From positions 1 through 6,300 of IMG/VR virus record IMGVR_UViG_648276671_000006: DNA of 6,300 bases. One strand, written 5' to 3'. Of this stretch, positions 1-6,300 are shown piece after piece. The translations under genes and the position numbers were made by a program. This DNA is from a virus (Duplodnaviria; Heunggongvirae; Uroviricota; Caudoviricetes). The notes under the pieces are model-generated. The model was not told the origin of the DNA. It made no database searches and worked only from the letters and a program-made list of their open reading frames with translations. The stretch's first letter is position 1; each line of letters opens with the position of its first letter.

Positions 1-203
1 GCTGAAAATGGCAGTAATGATTTATCCTCCGCCAGCGACTGGCGAACGGCAGGAACGAACCCGGACGGCAGATTACGCATGCTTTTCGGTTCCGGCTCCA
101 CCAGTATCCGGGTATTGTGGAATACTGGCATGGATTCACGGCCCAGCTTAAGGACCACCAACCCAAGTTCTGGTACCAGAACAGGTCGAAGTAATACCCG
201 CAC
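1..203 (-). CDS. hypothetical protein, truncated at the left window edge (N-terminus MRVLLRPVLVPELGLVVLKLGRESMPVFHNTRILVEPEPKSMRNLPSGFVPAVRQSLAEDKSLLPFS...)
   Basis: Minus-strand frame is open from GTG at 203..201 to position 1. GGAGG (212..208) lies 4 nt upstream, and the TAA stop of the preceding gene (207..205) sits inside the same GGAGGTAACGTG junction. An alternative in-frame ATG at 275..273 has only a weak GGA upstream. Not in the ORF track because it runs off the window. Product not recognised. Confidence 0.45.
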   Translation of the reverse strand, partial: MRVLLRPVLVPELGLVVLKLGRESMPVFHNTRILVEPEPKSMRNLPSGFVPAVRQSLAEDKSLLPFS

Positions 204-204
204 G

Positions 205-450
205 TTACCTCCAGATCCGTTGCTGGTATGTGCGGGATGGGCGCGGTGGGCGTTCGGAATAAGGGAGCCTGACATAGATTATCCAGTGACGATAATCGAG
301 GCTGAGGGCTTTCTTAATCTCGTATCCGCGTCTGCGGTAGTTCTGAATCAGCCATTCGGCCTGTTCTTCAGTGCAGGGGTTATGCTGGAACCAGTCTGGT
401 TTGAATGCGTGAAAACGCCGCTCATTGTAACTCGTTGCTTTTTGCGTCAT
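205..450 (-). CDS. hypothetical small protein (81 aa, MTQKATSYNERRFHAFKPDWFQHNPCTEEQAEWLIQNYRRRGYEI...)
   Basis: Track ORF 205..462 trimmed to the ATG at 450..448, which has GAGGA (460..456) 5 nt upstream. The N-terminal 50 residues look protein-like. The C-terminal 30 residues (RLPYSERPPRPSRTYQQRIWR) are low-complexity, so the true end is uncertain. Confidence 0.55.
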   Translation of the reverse strand: MTQKATSYNERRFHAFKPDWFQHNPCTEEQAEWLIQNYRRRGYEIKKALSLDYRHWIIYVRLPYSERPPRPSRTYQQRIWR

Positions 451-479
451 AACAATCCTCATGACGCATCATTATCAGA

Positions 480-511
480 CCCCACAGTGTTCAGCTATGG
501 GGTTTTATTAT
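480..511 (+). terminator. terminator-like hairpin with a plus-strand T-run, in the gap between two minus-strand genes
   Basis: CCCCACAG (480..487) pairs with CTATGGGG (495..502) with one mismatch, loop TGTTCAG, followed by TTTTATTAT on the plus strand. On the minus strand the same hairpin has no U-run after it. Confidence 0.3.
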
Positions 512-529
512 CTCCACTAACGGTGTCCG

Positions 530-748
530 CTACAAGCCCCCGGACGAATACTGCTGCACAATATCACGCAATACTGCGTGGGACACAATGCGTTCGTCAT
601 TATGCAGAGGGCGCACCCTTAATACCTTCCCCATTCGTCTCCAGACAGCTCTTTTACTATCAGGCAAACTATCCATCTCAGCAACCACTGCGCCATCAGA
701 GCGGCGAACAACTTCATATTCATGCTCCGTCAATGCGTGACTTCTCAT
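530..748 (-). CDS. hypothetical small protein (72 aa, MRSHALTEHEYEVVRRSDGAVVAEMDSLPDSKRAVWRRMGKVLRVRPLHNDERIVSHAVLRDIVQQYSSGGL)
   Basis: ATG at 748..746 with a strong AGGAGGAA 7 nt upstream. Balanced charged/hydrophobic composition. Lies downstream of the hok terminator, so it is probably a separate transcription unit or needs read-through. Confidence 0.6.
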   Translation of the reverse strand: MRSHALTEHEYEVVRRSDGAVVAEMDSLPDSKRAVWRRMGKVLRVRPLHNDERIVSHAVLRDIVQQYSSGGL

Positions 749-930
749 ATCGTATTTCCTCCTGGATCGTTACCTTCAAAATAAATCTTTCTGATAAGAG
801 AAATATAACCACCTGATGTGATTATTTCATCACCAATAATTGAGTGTTTTTTGCCCGCTCTCAATGAAATTTTTTTACGTCTGTTATCTAATCAGAAAGT
901 AGCGTGTCTTTTAAACAGTCGTTGATTTTG

Positions 931-957
931 GCAATAAAAAACCCGCCGAAGCGGGTT
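931..957 (-). terminator. rho-independent terminator of the hok transcript
   Basis: On the minus strand: AACCCGC-UUCG-GCGGGUU (plus 940..957) followed by UUUUAUUGC. GC-rich 7-bp stem with a UUCG tetraloop and U-run. Confidence 0.7.
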
Positions 958-960
958 AAG

Positions 961-1018
961 TGCGGGTGCGTTGAGGATGCCTGACACATCAGAGGTGGCG
1001 AGGGATTTCTCCCTCGCC
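961..1018 (-). promoter_or_regulatory. hok mRNA 3' elements: fbi-like box (961..976) and a perfect 9-bp hairpin (997..1018)
   Basis: The transcript here reads CCUCAACGCACCCGCA, complementary with one bulged C to the predicted 5' end UGCGGGUGCUUGAGG (1330..1316). GGCGAGGGA/UCCCUCGCC hairpin with a 4-nt loop sits just 3' of the hok stop. Confidence 0.5.
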
Positions 1019-1025
1019 TGGTCTC

Positions 1026-1181
1026 TTACTCCTCAGGTTCGTAAGCTGTGAAGACAGCGACCTCCGTCTGGCCGGTTCGGATTCGTACCTCGCAGAGGTC
1101 TTTCCTCGTTACCAGTGCCGTCACTATGACGGTTAAACAGATGACGATCAGGGCGATTAACATCGCCTTTTGCTGCTTCAT
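1026..1181 (-). CDS. hok: Hok/Gef-family type I toxin (51 aa, MKQQKAMLIALIVICLTVIVTALVTRKDLCEVRIRTGQTEVAVFTAYEPEE)
   Basis: Single hydrophobic transmembrane segment followed by the conserved RKxLCE.R...GxxEVAAF-like tail of Hok/Gef peptides. From memory it is closest to chromosomal HokD/RelF. ATG at 1181..1179 with AAGGAG 9 nt upstream. The 70-aa track ORF 1026..1238 is an in-frame N-terminal extension. Confidence 0.85.
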   Translation of the reverse strand: MKQQKAMLIALIVICLTVIVTALVTRKDLCEVRIRTGQTEVAVFTAYEPEE

Positions 1182-1227
1182 AGCCTGCTTCTCCTTGACC
1201 TTTCGGTCCGTAAGAGGCAATCTATAT

Positions 1228-1290
1228 GTGACGAGCATATAGGGGCCTCACTTCGATTTATAGTCGGGTGGGGCTTTTCTCTATCTGCCT
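1228..1290 (+). ncRNA. expected position of a Sok-like antisense RNA (approximate, not firmly located)
   Basis: By analogy with hok/sok loci, the antisense RNA should cover the leader-ORF SD (plus 1246..1251) and ATG (1236..1238). Plus-strand signals are weak: TTGACC (1195..1200), 17 nt, CAATCT; possible 3' stem 1245..1251/1268..1274 followed by TTTTCTCT. It may be degenerate. Confidence 0.2.
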
Positions 1291-1315
1291 TTGGTGGCAT
1301 GCCCGAGACAGATAG

Positions 1316-1361
1316 CCTCAAGCACCCGCAGCAATTCTACTTAACTCTCCTTTTCCCGCAA
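1316..1361 (-). promoter_or_regulatory. hok promoter and 5' tac-like box
   Basis: On the minus strand: TTGCGG (1361..1356), 16 nt, TAGAAT (1339..1334). Predicted start near 1328, giving a transcript of about 390 nt whose first 15 nt are complementary to 976..961. Confidence 0.45.
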
Positions 1362-1448
1362 ACCGTTTTTATCCCCATCGGCAAATCGAATACACCACCA
1401 GCGCCACCGCCAGTGCGATTCCTACCGTTGTGAATGCTTCAGGGCAGG

Positions 1449-1730
1449 TCATCGCAAAACATCCTCCGCGCTTATCAGTTCGTTCCGCTTCAGGTAGTCC
1501 ATCGCCTTCTCCGGTAATTTGCAGTCTGGATTAGCTTTTTTCAGTTGACTGACCAGTCGTTTAACCCACATTGTTAATTCGCCAACTTGGTTACTGGATG
1601 CTAATGGATTGTCGGCTTTACCCAGAATGACAGCACAGCAGGCCTCTTTGAGAACCCAATCAACAGCATCTTTCCATACTCCTGTTTCGACTGGTGGATT
1701 CTCACGCTTTACCTGTTCATAAAAGCGCAC
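1449..1730 (-). CDS. hypothetical protein (93 aa, VRFYEQVKRENPPVETGVWKDAVDWVLKEACCAVILGKADNPLASSNQVGELTMWVKRLVSQLKKANPDCKLPEKAMDYLKRNELISAEDVLR)
   Basis: Protein-like composition. The only start available is GTG at 1730..1728, with no convincing SD; it overlaps the upstream gene by 22 nt, so translation may be coupled. No in-frame ATG before residue 54. Confidence 0.5.
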   Translation of the reverse strand: MRFYEQVKRENPPVETGVWKDAVDWVLKEACCAVILGKADNPLASSNQVGELTMWVKRLVSQLKKANPDCKLPEKAMDYLKRNELISAEDVLR

Positions 1731-1957
1731 GGCTTTAACCAGTCCTTACGCGCCTGCTCCGAAGGAAATATCCCATGCCCCGAACCATATACTGCACCAC
1801 TGACCACCAGCTCTTTCGCCAGAACTTCTATCAGGTGTCTGGTAGCTCCGGTTTCATCTTCCAGTTGCTTACGCGTTTTCCTTCCGTCTCTGCGTACCAG
1901 TTCCACAATACGCGCCTTCAGTTGTTCCCTGTATTCAGGTGTAAAAGCGTTTCCCAT
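1709..1957 (-). CDS. small winged-helix-like protein (82 aa, MGNAFTPEYREQLKARIVELVRRDGRKTRKQLEDETGATRHLIEVLAKELVVSGAVYGSGHGIFPSEQARKDWLKPCAFMNR)
   Basis: Track ORF 1709..2014 begins at a TTG. The ATG at 1957..1955 has GAGG 5 nt upstream, overlapping the stop of the previous gene. Contains a K.T..EL....G.S...V...L...L...G.V motif also found twice in the 256-aa neighbour. Confidence 0.6.
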   Translation of the reverse strand: MGNAFTPEYREQLKARIVELVRRDGRKTRKQLEDETGATRHLIEVLAKELVVSGAVYGSGHGIFPSEQARKDWLKPCAFMNR

Positions 1958-1964
1958 AAACGCC

Positions 1965-2735
1965 TCACTTTTCCGATACAACGCGACTGGTGGAATCGAC
2001 AATCTGTCGAACAATATCCCGGTGCTTGTTCAGCTCCCGTAGCGCGGCGCAGACACGCTCCCACTTCTGGACATGGCTTTTCGCCCGACGCAGTTCACGA
2101 TTTGCCATATGCAGCGATGGTAAAATCAGGTCATCCGCTCGAGTTTCGGTGAACGATGACAACGACTGCACAATGTCCGCCACAGTTTCTGTTTTAATTT
2201 CTTCCTGTATTGCAGCTTCCTGTACAGGTAACGCAACGCCGGCTGGCTGAGGAAAGGCTTTACCATCATTTTCCGTTACCAATGCGACTTTCGGCTTTAC
2301 TGGTAAATTCTCGCCCGGCATGCAGTAGCGAAATTTACCGTTCTGGTTTACGCGTGCCAGCCGCCCCGTTGCGGTTACTACCGCCAGTGTGGAAGCAACC
2401 TTGCGAGTGCTGACACCGAACTTACCCGCCAGTTCCTCACACGTTTTAGCTCCCTCCTGACCGATAAACTCAATCATCATGTCAGCGGTAACTTTTCGTT
2501 CGACCTCCCTGGTTAACACATCTTGTGTTTCAGATTGTGCTGGCTGCTCTTCGGCTCCCCCTGATTCACCTTCGCCAGCCACACGCCAGGTGTATGCACT
2601 TTTATCAACGAAGCCAGCCTTTTTCAGTTCCCACAGCTCCTTCAGCACTTCTTCACGACTGATATCAAGTCGCGTAGTCAGTTCTACCGACGTGGCTTTT
2701 CCCATTGCTTTCAGTGCGTCAAAAACAGTCTCCAT
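1965..2735 (-). CDS. hypothetical protein with two tandem winged-helix-like motifs and a helical C-terminal region (256 aa)
   Basis: ATG at 2735..2733 with GGGAGGA 5 nt upstream; 33-nt gap after the P-like stop. Motifs [32 protein letters not shown] and [33 protein letters not shown]. No Walker A/B or nuclease motifs seen. Confidence 0.8.
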
Positions 2736-2768
2736 AAATTTCCTCCCGGTAAAAAATCACTTCTCAAC

Positions 2769-3434
2769 TCAAACAAAACCAGCCGCTTTCCGGCGTTCAT
2801 ACTCCTGTTTCAGCAACTCAATTGGCGTTGGTCCCGACGGGCGTTTGGGTGCTGCCAGTTGCCGCCGTACGGGCGGAACGCTGAGGCCGTTGCCAACATG
2901 CTTTGCCCATTTCGTCAGCTGCCGTTCTGCAAGCCGTTTTAACTCCCCTTCGGTCATCTGGCATTCAATCCCCTTTGAACGCATCTCGAGGCAAATGTGA
3001 TACAGCACAGGCTGAGACCACGGGTATTTATCGCTTCCGTCGTATCGCCAGGACTCATTGCGCCAGCGTCGGTACTCCTCCATCACGCCATCTACCGTCA
3101 GACCAAATGGATTTGCCCCGCTCTCCGAAATCAGCGCCACAAACTCAGCCAGGTCCGGAGGCCATGTTTCACCCGCCCGGCAGCGGTCCATGCACTGGCG
3201 GCAGACCTGCCGGATTTGCTGCTCAGTCATCGCGCCAATCTGTGCAATCCAGAGCTTCGAAGGTGCGGACCCGTTCTTCTGGGTCCAGCGGTTCGAATAA
3301 ACCTCCCCCATGAGTTCCCACAGCTTCCACGCCGTTTCCGTCGCTGATAAATCCGTTTTCACGTTCCCACTGTTCACGTGCTGCCCGAATTTCCTGAACT
3401 GCCCGTGATGCGGTGCCACCTGGTGCTGCTGCAT
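2769..3434 (-). CDS. replication protein P-like helicase loader
   Basis: The C-terminal two thirds align by eye with lambda P ([18 protein letters not shown] vs ESYPWKSNAHYWLVTNLY; [13 protein letters not shown] vs TDAELRRKAADEL). Start is uncertain: ATG at 3434 has a G-rich SD but overlaps the O-like gene by 212 nt; internal ATGs at 3311 and 3230 (the latter an ATGACTGA overlap with the O-like stop) are alternatives. Confidence 0.7.
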
Positions 3435-4263
3435 GGCTCCCCCCCTTGCTGACTGGTTTAACCTGCGCCCTGACGTGATTTACGTGACGGGCAAATTTCT
3501 GCTCCCACTGAACCTGCGTGAAAACTTTTCCCTCCTCTGCCCAGTAATCCCGGAAGGCGGCAAGTTCAGCAGGTGTAAATTCCGGCTCCGGCAAAGCCAC
3601 TCCCCACAGTGCAGCCCGCCGTCGAAAATCCGGCGACGGATACCAGTCATCGGTCATCGGAAATTTTCCGATGCGTTCGCTCAGGCCATCCAGGAATGCA
3701 GGGGGCGTTGCCTGTGACGGCAAAACTTCCCTCTCACTGGTCGGAGCACTCTCGCGTGCGTTATGTATGGGGTTTAGATCTTTAGGTTCCTTTGGGTTCC
3801 GTGATCCGTTTTTGGGTGTCTTTGATGGAAAATTTGGGTGCCTTTGGTTATTTTCTATGCTGCAAAGAGTCCCGTTTTTGGGTCTGTTTTGTGCGGAAAC
3901 ACAACCGTTTTTGGTGCTGTTTTTATTAACAGTACCAATTTTACCCACCTTTAAAGACTCCCGTTTTTGGGTGTATTCAGGCTCGGCAACACTTTCTTCA
4001 ACACCGATAAGTTGGTACACCACAATTTGCTTTGTTCGACCTTTTCTCTCACCGGTATCAACAATTAACCCAATCTCCATCAGGTGCCGTAAGCTGTCCT
4101 GCACAGTTTTTTTGTTCAGTTCCGTTACTTCTGCCAGTGCAGATACAGACGGGTATGCACACAAATCGGCACCGCACATATCAGCAAGCCAGGTCAATAC
4201 TGACTTACTGGATGAACTGCCGGTTTTCACCCTTTTAGCCCATCGTAGTGCATCGATACTCAT
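3223..4263 (-). CDS. O-like replication initiator: N-terminal HTH domain, PKNG-repeat linker, DnaT-like C-terminal domain
   Basis: Track ORF 3223..4338 starts at TTG. The ATG at 4263..4261 has GAGG 5 nt upstream ([15 protein letters not shown]...). N-terminal region resembles phage replication-initiator HTH domains; [48 protein letters not shown] resembles the DnaT C-terminal domain. Iteron-like repeats lie inside the linker-coding segment. Confidence 0.8.
3783..3976. repeat. iteron-like direct repeats (CCGTTTTTGGGTG family), putative replication origin inside the initiator gene
   Basis: Near-identical copies at 3806..3818, 3872..3884, 3905..3916 and 3961..3973, plus degenerate TTTGGGT(T/G)CC copies at 3791..3800 and 3833..3842. 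An AT-rich stretch lies at 3917..3958. On the coding strand the repeats translate to recurring PKNG. Confidence 0.55.
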
Positions 4264-4786
4264 GCGAACCTCGACCAGGTATCTGTTGACCCGCAAAGCA
4301 ATGTTGGTATTGCTGACGATATGCACGTTTGAAAGCAATAGCTTTTTCTATAAGCTCGTCAGCCTCACGCTCCACAACAGTTGGATCTGCAAAAAGCAGC
4401 CCGGACTCCACCACATCACCATACTCTTTGTTTAACCCGGCGATCATGTACGTAATGCTTTTTCCGTCAGTAATTTCACAATACAACCTGAAATCACTGA
4501 TCCGGATAGCCTCCATAATTGCCGGAATCAGCGCCGTGAATTTTTCACGCTTATCCCTGGTGTCGATAGCTTTCCAGCGTTCAAATATCTTCACCCTGTT
4601 AACGCCAAGCGCCCGCTGATCAACCACGCCATCATCAAATGTGACACGTTGAACATCGATGTTCGGGCGCTCTTTCAGAGCCCAGAAGGCTTCTGTGATT
4701 AATATCGTCGCCTGCTCCTGCGTCATTCCCGGGCTGCATACCCAGGAGTCCAGAGCCTCACGAGCCTGCTCAGGAGTGAATATCAT
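4235..4786 (-). CDS. YdaT-like protein, positional equivalent of lambda CII (183 aa)
   Basis: Sits between the Cro-like gene and the initiator, as cII does in lambda. ATG at 4786..4784 overlaps the Cro-like stop by 17 nt. Assignment to the YdaT family is from memory of prophage YdaS/YdaT pairs, not from a search. Confidence 0.7.
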
Positions 4787-5063
4787 TGTTCACCGCCAGT
4801 GATTCATTTGTCATACACTTATTCCCACAAGGCAGCCCATCGGTTAGATTGGGGTAAATATCTGGGCGAAGCTCGTGGGGGGTGACTTGCCATTCAAGGA
4901 GCACACAAAGAGGAATGACCCGCTCAGCTGGTATTGATTTATTGGCAAACCATTTTCCAACCCCTTGCCCACTAATCCCAAAGCGTTCTCCAATCTCGAC
5001 AAAGGAAAAGTTTTTTTTAATCTTGTCTCGTAGATCGTTTAGTTTTTGATGTTTTTTAGCCAC
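4770..5063 (-). CDS. Cro/YdaS-like HTH regulator (97 aa from the GTG start)
   Basis: HTH FVEIGERFGISGQGVGKWFANKSIPAERV and an ELRPD motif as in YdaS-type Cro proteins. Track ORF 4770..5162 would leave only 11 nt to the divergent repressor. GTG at 5063..5061 has a near-consensus SD GAGGTGAGG (5078..5070). ATG at 5087 is an alternative, possibly leaderless. Confidence 0.7.
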   Translation of the reverse strand: MAKKHQKLNDLRDKIKKNFSFVEIGERFGISGQGVGKWFANKSIPAERVIPLCVLLEWQVTPHELRPDIYPNLTDGLPCGNKCMTNESLAVNNDIHS

Positions 5064-5173
5064 ACAACACCTCACCTCTTGGTTCATCACTGGGAGCATA
5101 ACAGGCGAAAGTTTACGTTTCAAGAACAAGGAAACAAATAGTTGTACTGATAATCGAAACATTTGGTTGTAAA
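5064..5173. promoter_or_regulatory. divergent promoter/operator region of the immunity switch
   Basis: Three operator-like sites about 25 bp apart: GAAAGTTTACGTTTC (5107..5121, palindromic GAAA-N7-TTTC), GAAACAAATAGTTGTAC (5131..5147) and GAAACATTTGGTTGTAA (5156..5172). Leftward promoter TTGAAA (5123..5118), 17 nt, TATGCT (5100..5095). Rightward promoter CTGATA (5147..5152), 17 nt, TAAAAT (5170..5175). Confidence 0.55.
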
Positions 5174-5599
5174 ATGCAGGCTATGAACGATACCGTTAAC
5201 AATGTTTTTGCAAAAAGAATCCAGCAAGTGATGGATGAAAATGGCTGGAATAAGTCAGACCTGGCTAAGCGGGTCATGTTATCTCACACCGCGGTTCAGA
5301 ATTGGGCAAAAGGCATCAGCGTAGCCAGCGGTGTAAGATTAAAAAGGCTCGCAGCTGTAACAGGAAAGCCTGAGTACTGGTTTTTTATGGATCGGGATGC
5401 AGGAGGCGATGAAAATCACCAAGATATACCAATACCCATTGTGCTTGATGACAAAGAGAAAGCCCTGCTCTCAATTTTCAATCAAATGCCAGAAGCAGAA
5501 AAGTTACGCCTAATTATCCATGCTAAGGAAGTCCTGAGAGAGCTGGAACTGCTTAAGAGCGATGTTTTCGATATTATCAACGATCAATTAAAACCATAG
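5174..5599 (+). CDS. DicA-like HTH (XRE-family) prophage repressor, 141 aa
   Basis: N-terminal HTH SDLAKRVMLSHTAVQNWAKG; the C-terminal segment LDDKEKALLSIFNQMPEAEKLRLIIHAKEV resembles the DicA C-terminal region. No peptidase S24 (LexA-like) domain. Divergent from the Cro-like gene. The start may instead be the ATG at 5183, because the -10 TAAAAT overlaps the first ATG. Confidence 0.85.
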   Translation: MQAMNDTVNNVFAKRIQQVMDENGWNKSDLAKRVMLSHTAVQNWAKGISVASGVRLKRLAAVTGKPEYWFFMDRDAGGDENHQDIPIPIVLDDKEKALLSIFNQMPEAEKLRLIIHAKEVLRELELLKSDVFDIINDQLKP

Positions 5600-5624
5600 C
5601 TAACAAACCATCCACACATCAGAC

Positions 5625-5652
5625 AAAAAGCACCTTTCTGGTGCTTTTTTTT
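5625..5652 (+). terminator. rho-independent terminator after the repressor gene
   Basis: AAAAAGCACC-TTTCT-GGTGCTTTTT: perfect 10-bp stem, 5-nt loop, then a T-run to 5652. The A-run before the stem makes it potentially bidirectional. Confidence 0.7.
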
Positions 5653-5661
5653 GCCCAGAAA

Positions 5662-5712
5662 CGAAATTTTCTATTTCGCACACTTTACACGCGAAAGTTA
5701 TTGTTGCACAAT
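5662..5712 (+). promoter_or_regulatory. second operator-bearing promoter (PL-like) for the rightward ydfA-like operon
   Basis: GAAATTTTCTATTTC (5663..5677) is a second GAAA-N7-TTTC palindrome. GAAAGTTATTGTTGCAC (5693..5709) matches 12 of 17 positions of the 5131..5147 site. Candidate promoter TTTACA (5684..5689), 17 nt, CACAAT (5707..5712). Confidence 0.35.
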
Positions 5713-5790
5713 CCACACCATCAACAACGAAACGCATCGTTGTCAGGCTAAAGTTCCGCTACCCCGGCGTTAAGGGGAAATGAGGTCAAC

Positions 5791-5943
5791 ATGGATACTA
5801 TCGATCTTGGCAACAACGAATCTCTGGTGTACGGCGTGTTTCCCAACCAGGACGGCACGTTCACCGCGATGACGTATACCAAAAGCAAAACATTTAAAAC
5901 CGAAGCTGGCGCGCGTCGCTGGTTAGCCAGAAACACTGACTGA
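5791..5943 (+). CDS. YdfA-like small protein (50 aa, MDTIDLGNNESLVYGVFPNQDGTFTAMTYTKSKTFKTEAGARRWLARNTD)
   Basis: Below the ORF-track length cutoff. ATG at 5791 with GAGG 5 nt upstream; stop TGA at 5941..5943. Its position immediately downstream of a DicA-like repressor matches the dicA-ydfA arrangement of the Qin prophage. Sequence identity to YdfA is from uncertain memory. Confidence 0.6.
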   Translation: MDTIDLGNNESLVYGVFPNQDGTFTAMTYTKSKTFKTEAGARRWLARNTD

Positions 5944-5954
5944 TGAGGTTGACG

Positions 5955-6300
5955 ATGGAATTTAAAGATTTACCAAAAGAAATCCAGTCCATTGCTGCAA
6001 CGACACTTAGTGATAGCCTGGTGGAAATTAACCCGGCATACATCAAAAAGGAAACCATCGATAATTTGGTTCGTAATGTGCGCGATGCGTTTACCGGATT
6101 GTACTCCGTTTCGGTAACAAACAACCAGAATACTGAAGAAGCTGCAAAGCGGAATGCCTCGGTGACGGGTTTTCATGTCGAGGAAAAGTATTCAAAAAAG
6201 AATTCTGGAAAACTGCAAAAAAATTGCAGAGCGAGAACTGTCATCTCCTGCGGCAAATCGGTTCTTTCTATGAGGAAAGTTATTCAGATGACACAGGATT
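5955..6300 (+). CDS. hypothetical protein, truncated at the right window edge (MEFKDLPKEIQSIAATTLSDSLVEINPAYIKKETIDNLVRNVRDAFTGLYSVSVTNNQNTEEAAKRNASVTGFHVEEKYSKK...)
   Basis: ATG at 5955 with GAGG 6 nt upstream, 11 nt after the ydfA-like stop. The frame stays open to position 6300. The first 80 residues look protein-like; the last 35 are lysine/serine-rich and contain a perfect hairpin, so the real gene may end earlier in other strains. Confidence 0.4.
   Translation, partial: MEFKDLPKEIQSIAATTLSDSLVEINPAYIKKETIDNLVRNVRDAFTGLYSVSVTNNQNTEEAAKRNASVTGFHVEEKYSKKNSGKLQKNCRARTVISCGKSVLSMRKVIQMTQD

Follow-up and report, generated by a model that had tools for sequence, protein, structure and literature searches.

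A short GtgR/DicA-type repressor of a lambdoid prophage, with predicted leaderless expression and a candidate antirepressor

The Gifsy prophages of Salmonella carry the small immunity repressors GtgR (GftR, GogR), GfoR and GfhR, which pair with GftA, GfoA and GfhA. The Gifsy repressors are not cleaved upon mitomycin C treatment, and cleavage of LexA is required for induction (Lemire 2011, PMC3121763). GftA, GfoA and GfhA are small antirepressors that bind the Gifsy repressors and free them from DNA, and the Gifsy antirepressors are encoded in a LexA-controlled dinI-gftA-irsA operon ∼1.3 kb past the replication genes (PMC3121763). The same study predicted that homologues of ∼150 amino acids (aa) in E. 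coli, Citrobacter, Klebsiella and others, including DicA and RacR, act alike, and the repression exerted by DicA is relieved by an antirepressor, Rem (PMC10448788). FsoA and Rem are not under LexA control, showing that the LexA wiring varies within the family (PMC3121763, PMC10448788). The LexA-controlled proteins Tum (phage 186) and AntC (N15) are further precedents for antirepressor-driven induction (PMC3121763), here by analogy only. We analysed a stretch of 6,300 nucleotides from a virus of the Caudoviricetes (positions 1 to 6,300 of IMG/VR record IMGVR_UViG_648276671_000006; 'the window' hereafter). This DNA corresponds to the early region of a lambdoid prophage, and its repressor gene (5183..5599, plus strand) is assigned below to the family of these short repressors.

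We consider it likely that this gene encodes a short, non-cleavable immunity repressor of the GtgR/DicA type, which is translated from a leaderless mRNA and inactivated by an antirepressor. In this model, the protein would act as the immunity (CI-equivalent) repressor of the prophage and would be translated from the second of two in-frame ATG codons, at 5183, to give 138 aa. Its N-terminal helix-turn-helix (HTH) domain would bind 15-bp operators of the form GAAAS-N5-GTTKY, three toward the YdaS gene and at least two before the leftward early operon. In the lysogen, a promoter with a weak −35 and the −10 hexamer TAAAAT (5170..5175) would set the start of transcription at about A5183. A start there would make the repressor mRNA leaderless, as are those of lambda cI from PRM, RacR, DicA and PaaR2. 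Inactivation of the repressor would fall to a small antirepressor, the best candidate being a GftA-like open reading frame (ORF) at 530..748 on the minus strand, whose unit, unlike those of the Gifsy antirepressors, has no LexA box. The transcription start, the leaderless translation, the lack of cleavage and the pairing of repressor and antirepressor are what we infer from the sequence anatomy, the homology and the promoter-to-ATG geometry, all of which were observed directly.

The repressor, its family and its operators

The repressor ORF (5174..5599, plus strand) starts with ATG and reads as 141 aa from this first ATG; counted from the conserved start discussed below, the coding sequence (5183..5599) comprises 138 aa and a stop codon. 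Pfam matched HTH families alone (HTH_3 at residues 16–70, E = 4e-8), with no match to Peptidase_S24 (PF00717) at E ≤ 0.01, and PHROGs classed the ORF with phage repressors and regulators. An AlphaFold2 model (32 homologues, mean pLDDT 78; residue numbers per the 138-aa form) consists of five N-terminal helices that make up the HTH domain (3–68), a low-confidence linker (69–89) and two C-terminal helices (90–101 and 104–136). A Foldseek search of the PDB returned matches to HTH domains alone (among them SinR, C.BclI and the N-terminal domains of P22 C2 and 434), and a search of PDB sequences with the repressor family profile gave no match at E ≤ 0.001. The signature of LexA and lambda CI, namely a Ser-Lys dyad within a C-terminal S24 domain and, in the linker, a conserved Ala-Gly or Cys-Gly site for cleavage, was not found in the repressor, in which the one Ala-Gly pair (residues 74–75) lies within the disordered linker and is not conserved among homologues. 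Since the C-terminus is modelled as two helices and no S24 β-domain is present, the repressor is predicted to be unable to cleave itself on RecA stimulation, and the missing S24 domain together with the data on the Gifsy repressors supports its classification as non-cleavable. The conserved two-helix C-terminus probably serves for dimerization and/or for binding of the antirepressor. The first-pass annotation of this DNA had read the protein as an HTH with a short helical C-terminus and no space for an S24 domain, and had argued that a repressor that cannot cleave itself implies an antirepressor or another mechanism. Pfam and the AlphaFold2 model agree with that reading of the domains, and the argument matches the data on the Gifsy family (PMC3121763) and on DicA and Rem (PMC10448788).

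In tblastn searches of phage genomes, the repressor was 64% identical to GtgR of Gifsy-1 and Gifsy-2 (Salmonella LT2) over residues 4–137 (E = 2e-52) and 58% identical to the putative CI of a Klebsiella phage. A large protein search recovered 117 relatives across the Enterobacteriaceae, mostly of 133–144 aa and with HTH families alone. The identical sequence was found once, on a 950-nt Logan contig (P0001), where it had been called as 138 aa from the second ATG. DicA of prophage Qin was 31% identical (E = 1e-14), the C-terminal motif LLxLFNxLPExE being common to both proteins, whilst the NCBIfam DicA model gave 44 bits, under the family cut-off of 101 bits, and the similarity to RacR was marginal (26%, E = 0.003). 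The repressor has full-length homology to the GtgR/GfoR family, the small HTH-only size and a cI position flanked by operators, and on this sequence evidence we place it in the GtgR/GfoR/DicA family, of which DicA is a remote member. The immunity cassette was not found at high identity among complete E. coli genomes, in which the best match had 68–69% nucleotide identity.

Three operators precede the repressor gene, spaced 24–25 bp centre to centre (starting at 5107, 5131 and 5156). The one nearest the gene, GAAACATTTGGTTGT (5156..5170), is OR3-like; it is an exact match to GAAAS-N5-GTTKY, belongs to repeat family D2/D5, and reaches from the spacer of the repressor's promoter into the first base of the −10. 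The OR2-like operator, GAAACAAATAGTTGT (5131..5145), lies directly against the −35 of this promoter, and the OR1-like operator, GAAAGTTTACGTTTC (5107..5121), overlaps the −35 of the divergent promoter; both were identified from the pattern and as repeats. Five exact matches to the pattern occur in the window; each is on the plus strand and falls in one of the two intergenic regions on either side of the repressor gene. The pattern was derived from the first three sites, so that the sites at 5693 and 5729 constitute an independent test. These two operators (5693..5707 and 5729..5743) lie in an OL/PL-like region (5684..5743, plus strand) together with the promoter-like sequence TTTACA-17-CACAAT (5684..5712). 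The promoter scan placed a PR-like promoter of the cro-like operon, TTGAAA-17-TATGCT (with TG), at 5095..5123 on the minus strand. The layout is that of lambda OR/PRM/PR.

A candidate antirepressor in the rem slot

A GftA-like gene was detected by tblastn in 18 of the 27 relatives for which 10-kb flanks were available, and in 14 of these 18 it was preceded by a perfect LexA box. A hidden Markov model (HMM) built from the GftA-like proteins of the relatives was run on all ORFs of the window and singled out a 72-aa ORF at 530..748 on the minus strand (E = 3.8e-6, 20 bits), the match being colinear over almost the full length. Alignment of this ORF to the GftA profile with hhalign gave a probability of 92.8% (E = 4e-7) over 62 columns. 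The search for an antirepressor that had been proposed at the outset thus yielded a candidate distantly related to GftA and GfoA, located in the rem slot. The ORF has a strong Shine–Dalgarno (SD) sequence, AGGAGG, and is a separate transcription unit on the minus strand, set off from the hokD-like gene by an intrinsic terminator (957..940). Its own promoter-like site, TTGAGA-17-AATTAT (864..836), is followed by the palindrome GTGAT-N6-ATCAC (833..818) at the predicted start of transcription.

The position of the ORF was informative. The window is colinear with the O157 phage PPompW (L122, PPompW_132418) at ∼90% nucleotide identity over 1..421, 937..1369 and 2010..4797. Segment 422..936, with ORF 530..748, replaces the rem segment of PPompW, and segment 4798..5738 replaces dicC-dicA, both replacements being non-homologous; the homology stops at 937, just downstream of the terminator. 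No homologue of the 72-aa ORF was found by a word-index search, the exact sequence not being on record, and an exhaustive HMMER search found one true homologue cluster, P0118 (59% identity). In 4/4 prophages shown, P0118 occupies this slot too, followed by a 92-aa ORF, ydfU, rusA and Q. All four of these prophages carry a 120–136-aa HTH_3 repressor beside YdaS/YdaT, and the repressor of the one that was compared (L123) is 61% identical to that of the window. Taken together, the PPompW replacements and the P0118 prophages indicate that the type of repressor and the ORF in the slot co-vary, which suggests that the repressor and antirepressor cassettes were swapped as a matched pair at two separate sites.

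Several results speak against ORF 530..748 as a Gifsy-like antirepressor. The similarity to the GftA family is weak (20 bits; 15% identity in hhalign) and is supplemented by position, tblastn of DinI, GftA and IrsA of Gifsy-2 gave no match in the window, and Rem had no similarity to any window ORF. No LexA box (CTGT-N8-ACAG) lies upstream of the ORF, so the SOS link of the Gifsy prophages is not reproduced, and none lies ahead of its homologue in the P0118 prophage. A CTG-N9-CAG sequence upstream of ORF 530..748 was rejected as a LexA box for its wrong spacing. With neither a DinI or IrsA homologue in the window nor this LexA box, a LexA-controlled dinI-gftA-irsA operon is absent, and direct coupling of the candidate to the SOS response is therefore unsupported.

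The missing LexA box and the weak similarity to GftA would also fit a model in which ORF 530..748 is an unrelated small phage gene and derepression occurs without an antirepressor, through bistability between the repressor and Cro (YdaS) or through proteolysis. Bistability is known for the PaaR2/YdaS switch, which is unresponsive to mitomycin C. Likewise, dicBp turns on spontaneously without Rem and without RecA (PMC10448788). However, the closest characterized relatives (64% identity) are controlled by antirepressors (PMC3121763), gftA-like genes are present in 18/27 relatives, and ORF 530..748 co-varies with the immunity cassette and shares the slot of rem. Derepression without an antirepressor is thus unlikely, and we favour inactivation of the repressor by an antirepressor, with ORF 530..748 as the candidate. 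A bolder extension of this proposal, which we regard as rather unlikely, would combine a GtgR-type repressor with a very divergent GftA-like antirepressor that is not wired to LexA, a regulator acting at GTGAT-N6-ATCAC, and exchange of the cassettes as a matched pair (dicA/dicC with rem versus GtgR-like/YdaS with the GftA-like ORF). If the non-LexA wiring is true, something other than DNA damage would trigger induction. The identity of the inducer of prophages free of a LexA box, as with Rem, bears on the mobilization of Stx-type and other lambdoid prophages.

Some further observations concern this region and possible LexA sites. The palindrome in the candidate's unit, GTGATGAAATAATCAC in the minus-strand reading (818..833), is a perfect 16-bp palindrome just downstream of the promoter-like −10, is present as a single copy in the window, and fits neither LexA, CRP (wrong spacing) nor the repressor-operator patterns. 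The gene directly upstream of the candidate antirepressor is hokD-like, and the same order, hokD followed by rem, is found in Qin. The closest relative, L094 (repressor 76% identical), has a LexA-box-like sequence, TTCTGCATATACAAACAGTA (12237..12256; 16/20), ∼2.2 kb to the right of its repressor gene, in the leftward early operon; an IrsA homologue is present there, and GftA and DinI were not detected. In some family members the antirepressor may be located elsewhere. In the window, TGCTGTTTTTATTAACAGTA (3915..3934, minus strand), within the O-like gene, is LexA-box-like with 15/20 matches to the consensus, contains the one perfect CTGT-N8-ACAG of the window (3917..3932) and directly adjoins the third in a set of four iteron-like repeats. 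The oop promoter of lambda, which LexA regulates, offers a parallel. A promoter-like site was not detected near 3917..3932, and TGCTGTTTTTATTAACAGTA is at most a putative LexA site.

Start codon and promoter of the repressor gene

The hexamer TAAAAT (5170..5175) overlaps the first ATG (5174..5176), and a second in-frame ATG follows at 5183..5185. The methionine encoded at 5183 (M4) is invariant in 29/29 aligned homologues, and the three residues before it are present in a minority. The DNA upstream of the conserved ATG was compared for 118 related loci, which gave 51 distinct 120-nt sequences in 12 operator-region clusters. A hexamer TA[AGT]AAT was present in all 51 (TAAAAT in 45, TAGAAT in 5 and TATAAT in 1), ending 6 nt before the ATG in 41 and 7 nt before it in 10, across the 12 operator types. 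The bases between hexamer and ATG vary freely, and the operators diverge too. TATACT stands 6 nt ahead of the ATG in one more relative, which comes from an independent group of prophages. An open, in-frame upstream ATG occurs in 10/51 sequences, all with the 7-nt gap, and is absent or out of frame in 41/51; the TAAAATG of Gifsy contains an out-of-frame ATG that is immediately followed by TGA. Given that the upstream start is not conserved and that the distance from hexamer to ATG is fixed, the first ATG appears to be a by-product of the −10 motif TAAAATG, and the alignments make the second ATG, at 5183, almost certainly the true start of a repressor of 138 aa.

The first-pass annotation had the coordinates of the hexamer, of both ATG codons and of the ORF exactly right; its length of 141 aa for the protein should be corrected to 138 aa. 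The correction applies likewise to homologues annotated from the ATG inside TAAAATG, of which there are several in the databases. The identical repressor genes of LT2 are annotated differently, that of Gifsy-2 (L001 2995) from a GTG two codons upstream and that of Gifsy-1 (L002 3001) from the conserved ATG. On the basis of the conserved start, the longer annotations, from the GTG of Gifsy-2 or from the ATG inside TAAAATG, would be wrong.

The comparison of upstream regions and the promoter scan both identified TAAAAT (5170..5175) as the −10 of a PRM-like maintenance promoter. It is preceded at 17 bp by a weak −35, CTGATA (5147..5152; 4/6), so that CTGATA-17-TAAAAT (5147..5175) has 9/12 matches to the consensus. 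The −35 is weak throughout the relatives (2–4/6), with nTG at the 17-bp spacing in 12/14 representatives, and this weakness fits an activator-dependent maintenance promoter. The TG of TTGTAAAAT was discarded as part of an extended −10, being one base out of register (scan flag 'no'). E. coli RNA polymerase initiates ∼7 (6–9) bases after the −10 hexamer and prefers a purine preceded by a pyrimidine. Applied to TAAAAT at 5170..5175, this rule predicts a start at A5183, which is preceded by T5182, just as at lambda PRM. None of the 51 upstream regions has an SD match of ≥4 nt at −18..−4, and the AGG matches lie upstream of the hexamer. By contrast, a strong SD (GAGGTGAGG) precedes the divergently oriented cro-like gene (4770..5063, minus strand), so the lack of an SD is particular to the repressor gene. 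Over its first 60 nt, the putative leaderless mRNA has an unpaired AUG and a structure that is not unusual (z = −0.6).

Leaderless mRNAs have been mapped for several repressors of this kind. For RacR, the leaderless promoter PracR3 was mapped by primer extension and −10 mutagenesis (PMC9638921), differential RNA-seq gave leaderless starts for dicA, racR and ymfK (PMC4681348), and PaaR2 was shown to be leaderless by 5′ RACE, N-terminal sequencing and mass spectrometry (PMC8630535). For GfhR of Gifsy-3, the primary promoter was placed between two in-frame AUGs (PMC3121763). The literature contained nothing relevant on a mapped gtgR transcription start, or on 'leaderless' together with Gifsy. The mRNA of the repressor is probably leaderless: the proposal made at the outset, of a leaderless start near 5183 as in lambda cI, is supported by the 6–7-nt geometry in 51/51 upstream regions and the missing SD, and is in line with the mapped precedents. 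Because this geometry is kept across the GtgR clade, in 51 upstream regions with 12 operator types, expression without a leader seems to be a trait of the family, in which case it would not be peculiar to a few cryptic prophages.

Some observations count against this assignment. The promoter scan, taken alone, did no better than chance (3 sites versus 1.5 ± 1.1 expected). With the 7-nt gap of the window, A5183 is the eighth base after the hexamer, whereas most homologues have the more usual seventh, and a 1-nt leader with a start at T5182 is possible. Another hexamer, GATAAT (5149..5154), could yield a transcript with a leader of ∼21 nt. A CII(YdaT)-dependent establishment promoter would give a leadered mRNA, and such transcripts probably arise during establishment. 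Three promoters serve RacR, the strongest being the leaderless one (PMC9638921).

The repressor could thus be made mainly from leadered transcripts, arising at GATAAT or at a CII/YdaT establishment promoter in the cro-like gene and translated without an SD from 5174 and/or 5183, the leaderless transcript being minor or absent. GATAAT matches the −10 consensus at 5/6 positions and a CII-like gene is present in the window. Two of the promoters of RacR are leadered (PMC9638921), and on induction GfhR of Gifsy-3 is made in an N-terminally extended form via an upstream AUG and an upstream promoter (PMC3121763). However, GATAAT was rejected as the main promoter, since it lacks a usable −35 and is not preserved among the relatives. 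Moreover, the preservation of TA[AGT]AAT at 6–7 nt from the ATG in every upstream region, the first ATG that is absent or out of frame in 41/51, and the strength of the leaderless promoter of RacR (PMC9638921) all argue for the leaderless transcript. We therefore regard mainly leadered expression as improbable, although leadered and leaderless transcripts may coexist, as in lambda cI. It is highly improbable that TTGTAAAAT is conserved as an operator half-site or as the minus-strand −35 (TTTACA) of the divergent promoter, and not as part of the repressor promoter: it does overlap the right half of operator 5156..5170 and its reverse complement holds TTTACA (5/6 to the −35 consensus), but no acceptable −10 follows 15–18 bp downstream of TTTACA in the window or in Gifsy, which rejects the −35 role, the PR-like promoter lies elsewhere (5123..5095), the hexamer is kept across phages with differing operators (CTTG/CAAG versus GAAAC types), and the fixed distance is that from the hexamer to the ATG and not that to the operators.

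The early region and its relation to known systems

The genes around the repressor are those of an early region. The cro-like gene (4770..5063, minus strand) has a GTG start and encodes a YdaS-family HTH protein (Pfam YdaS_toxin, E = 4e-9; PHROG 35). It is accompanied on the minus strand by a gene for a CII-like YdaT-family protein at 4235..4786 (Pfam YdaT_toxin; PHROG 163, 'CII-like transcriptional activator', E = 5e-39), by O-like (3223..4338) and P-like (2769..3434) replication genes, and by DUF1627, DUF977 and more small genes. Within the O-like gene, CCGTTTTTGGKT occurs four times (3806, 3872, 3905 and 3961; span 3806..3972) against 0.1 expected by chance, and these copies are most likely the iterons of a replication origin. 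The hokD-like gene (1026..1238, minus strand) encodes a toxin of the Hok/Gef family (Pfam HOK_GEF, E = 3e-23); its ORF has a mok-like N-terminal extension, and its matches in E. coli are annotated hokD. A plus-strand ORF of 245 aa (79..816) is antisense to small minus-strand genes and has a short PHROG match (residues 70–115); it probably only mirrors the genes of the opposite strand and is no real gene. On the other side, an intrinsic terminator (5625..5649, plus strand), an inverted repeat with a perfect 10-bp stem, a 5-nt loop and a T run, lies 3′ of the repressor gene. After this terminator and the OL/PL-like region, a DUF1391 gene (ydfA/ydaF-like) starts at 5791 on the plus strand, in the leftward early operon. 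Beyond it in the same operon, an ORF starting MEFKDLPKEIQ (5955..6300, plus strand) runs out of the right end of the window.

Of the systems compared, SinR/SinI of Bacillus is the most remote. SinR also combines an HTH with a helical C-terminal domain, at which a small antagonist is aimed, and it was among the best full-length Foldseek matches; however, this is an analogy only (Foldseek E ∼1e-3, TM 0.4), with no sequence relationship. The resemblance to lambda cI and PRM is one of layout. Both have divergent promoters and three operators 24–25 bp apart, the nearest overlapping the repressor's own promoter, and both combine a weak −35, a −10 located 6–7 nt before the AUG and a leaderless mRNA, predicted in the case of the window; in both, the repressor gene is followed by a terminator and, beyond it, an OL/PL-like region. 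In contrast to lambda cI, the window repressor has no S24 domain, and hence would not undergo RecA-stimulated autocleavage. The 15-bp operators of the window have other sequences, and its analogues of Cro and CII are of the YdaS and YdaT families.

PaaR2 of CP-933P (PMC8630535) and RacR of Rac (PMC9638921) are likewise short HTH repressors in the cI position beside YdaS/YdaT, with no peptidase motif. RacR has its −10, GAATAT, 6 nt ahead of the ATG. PaaR2, which was likened by description, is co-transcribed with a toxin–antitoxin pair, whereas in the window a terminator directly follows the repressor gene. The DicA/DicC/Rem system of Qin and PPompW is of the broader family and has its antirepressor slot in the same place, between hokD/gef and ydfU. 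The mRNA of dicA is leaderless by differential RNA-seq (PMC4681348), as is proposed for the repressor gene of the window. The two differ in that the immunity cassette and the ORF in the slot are non-homologous to those of PPompW, and in that the DicA model score is under its cut-off.

The Gifsy repressors GtgR, GfoR and GfhR have the same size and HTH-only make-up as the window repressor, without S24, and are divergent from cro/cII-like genes. They share the geometry of TTGTAAAAT at 6 or 7 nt from the ATG, and a small GftA-like ORF located downstream of the replication genes and behind a terminator. Unlike in Gifsy, the Cro type and the operators are different, YdaS/YdaT being present in the window, and the candidate antirepressor is very divergent and lies outside any dinI-gftA-irsA operon, without a LexA box. 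Short repressors that are non-cleavable, controlled by an antirepressor and leaderless are thus already known from Gifsy, DicA, RacR and PaaR2, and the window repressor represents a rediscovered class and no new mechanism. What is new is the candidate for its cognate antirepressor within the window, in the very slot that holds rem in a colinear phage.

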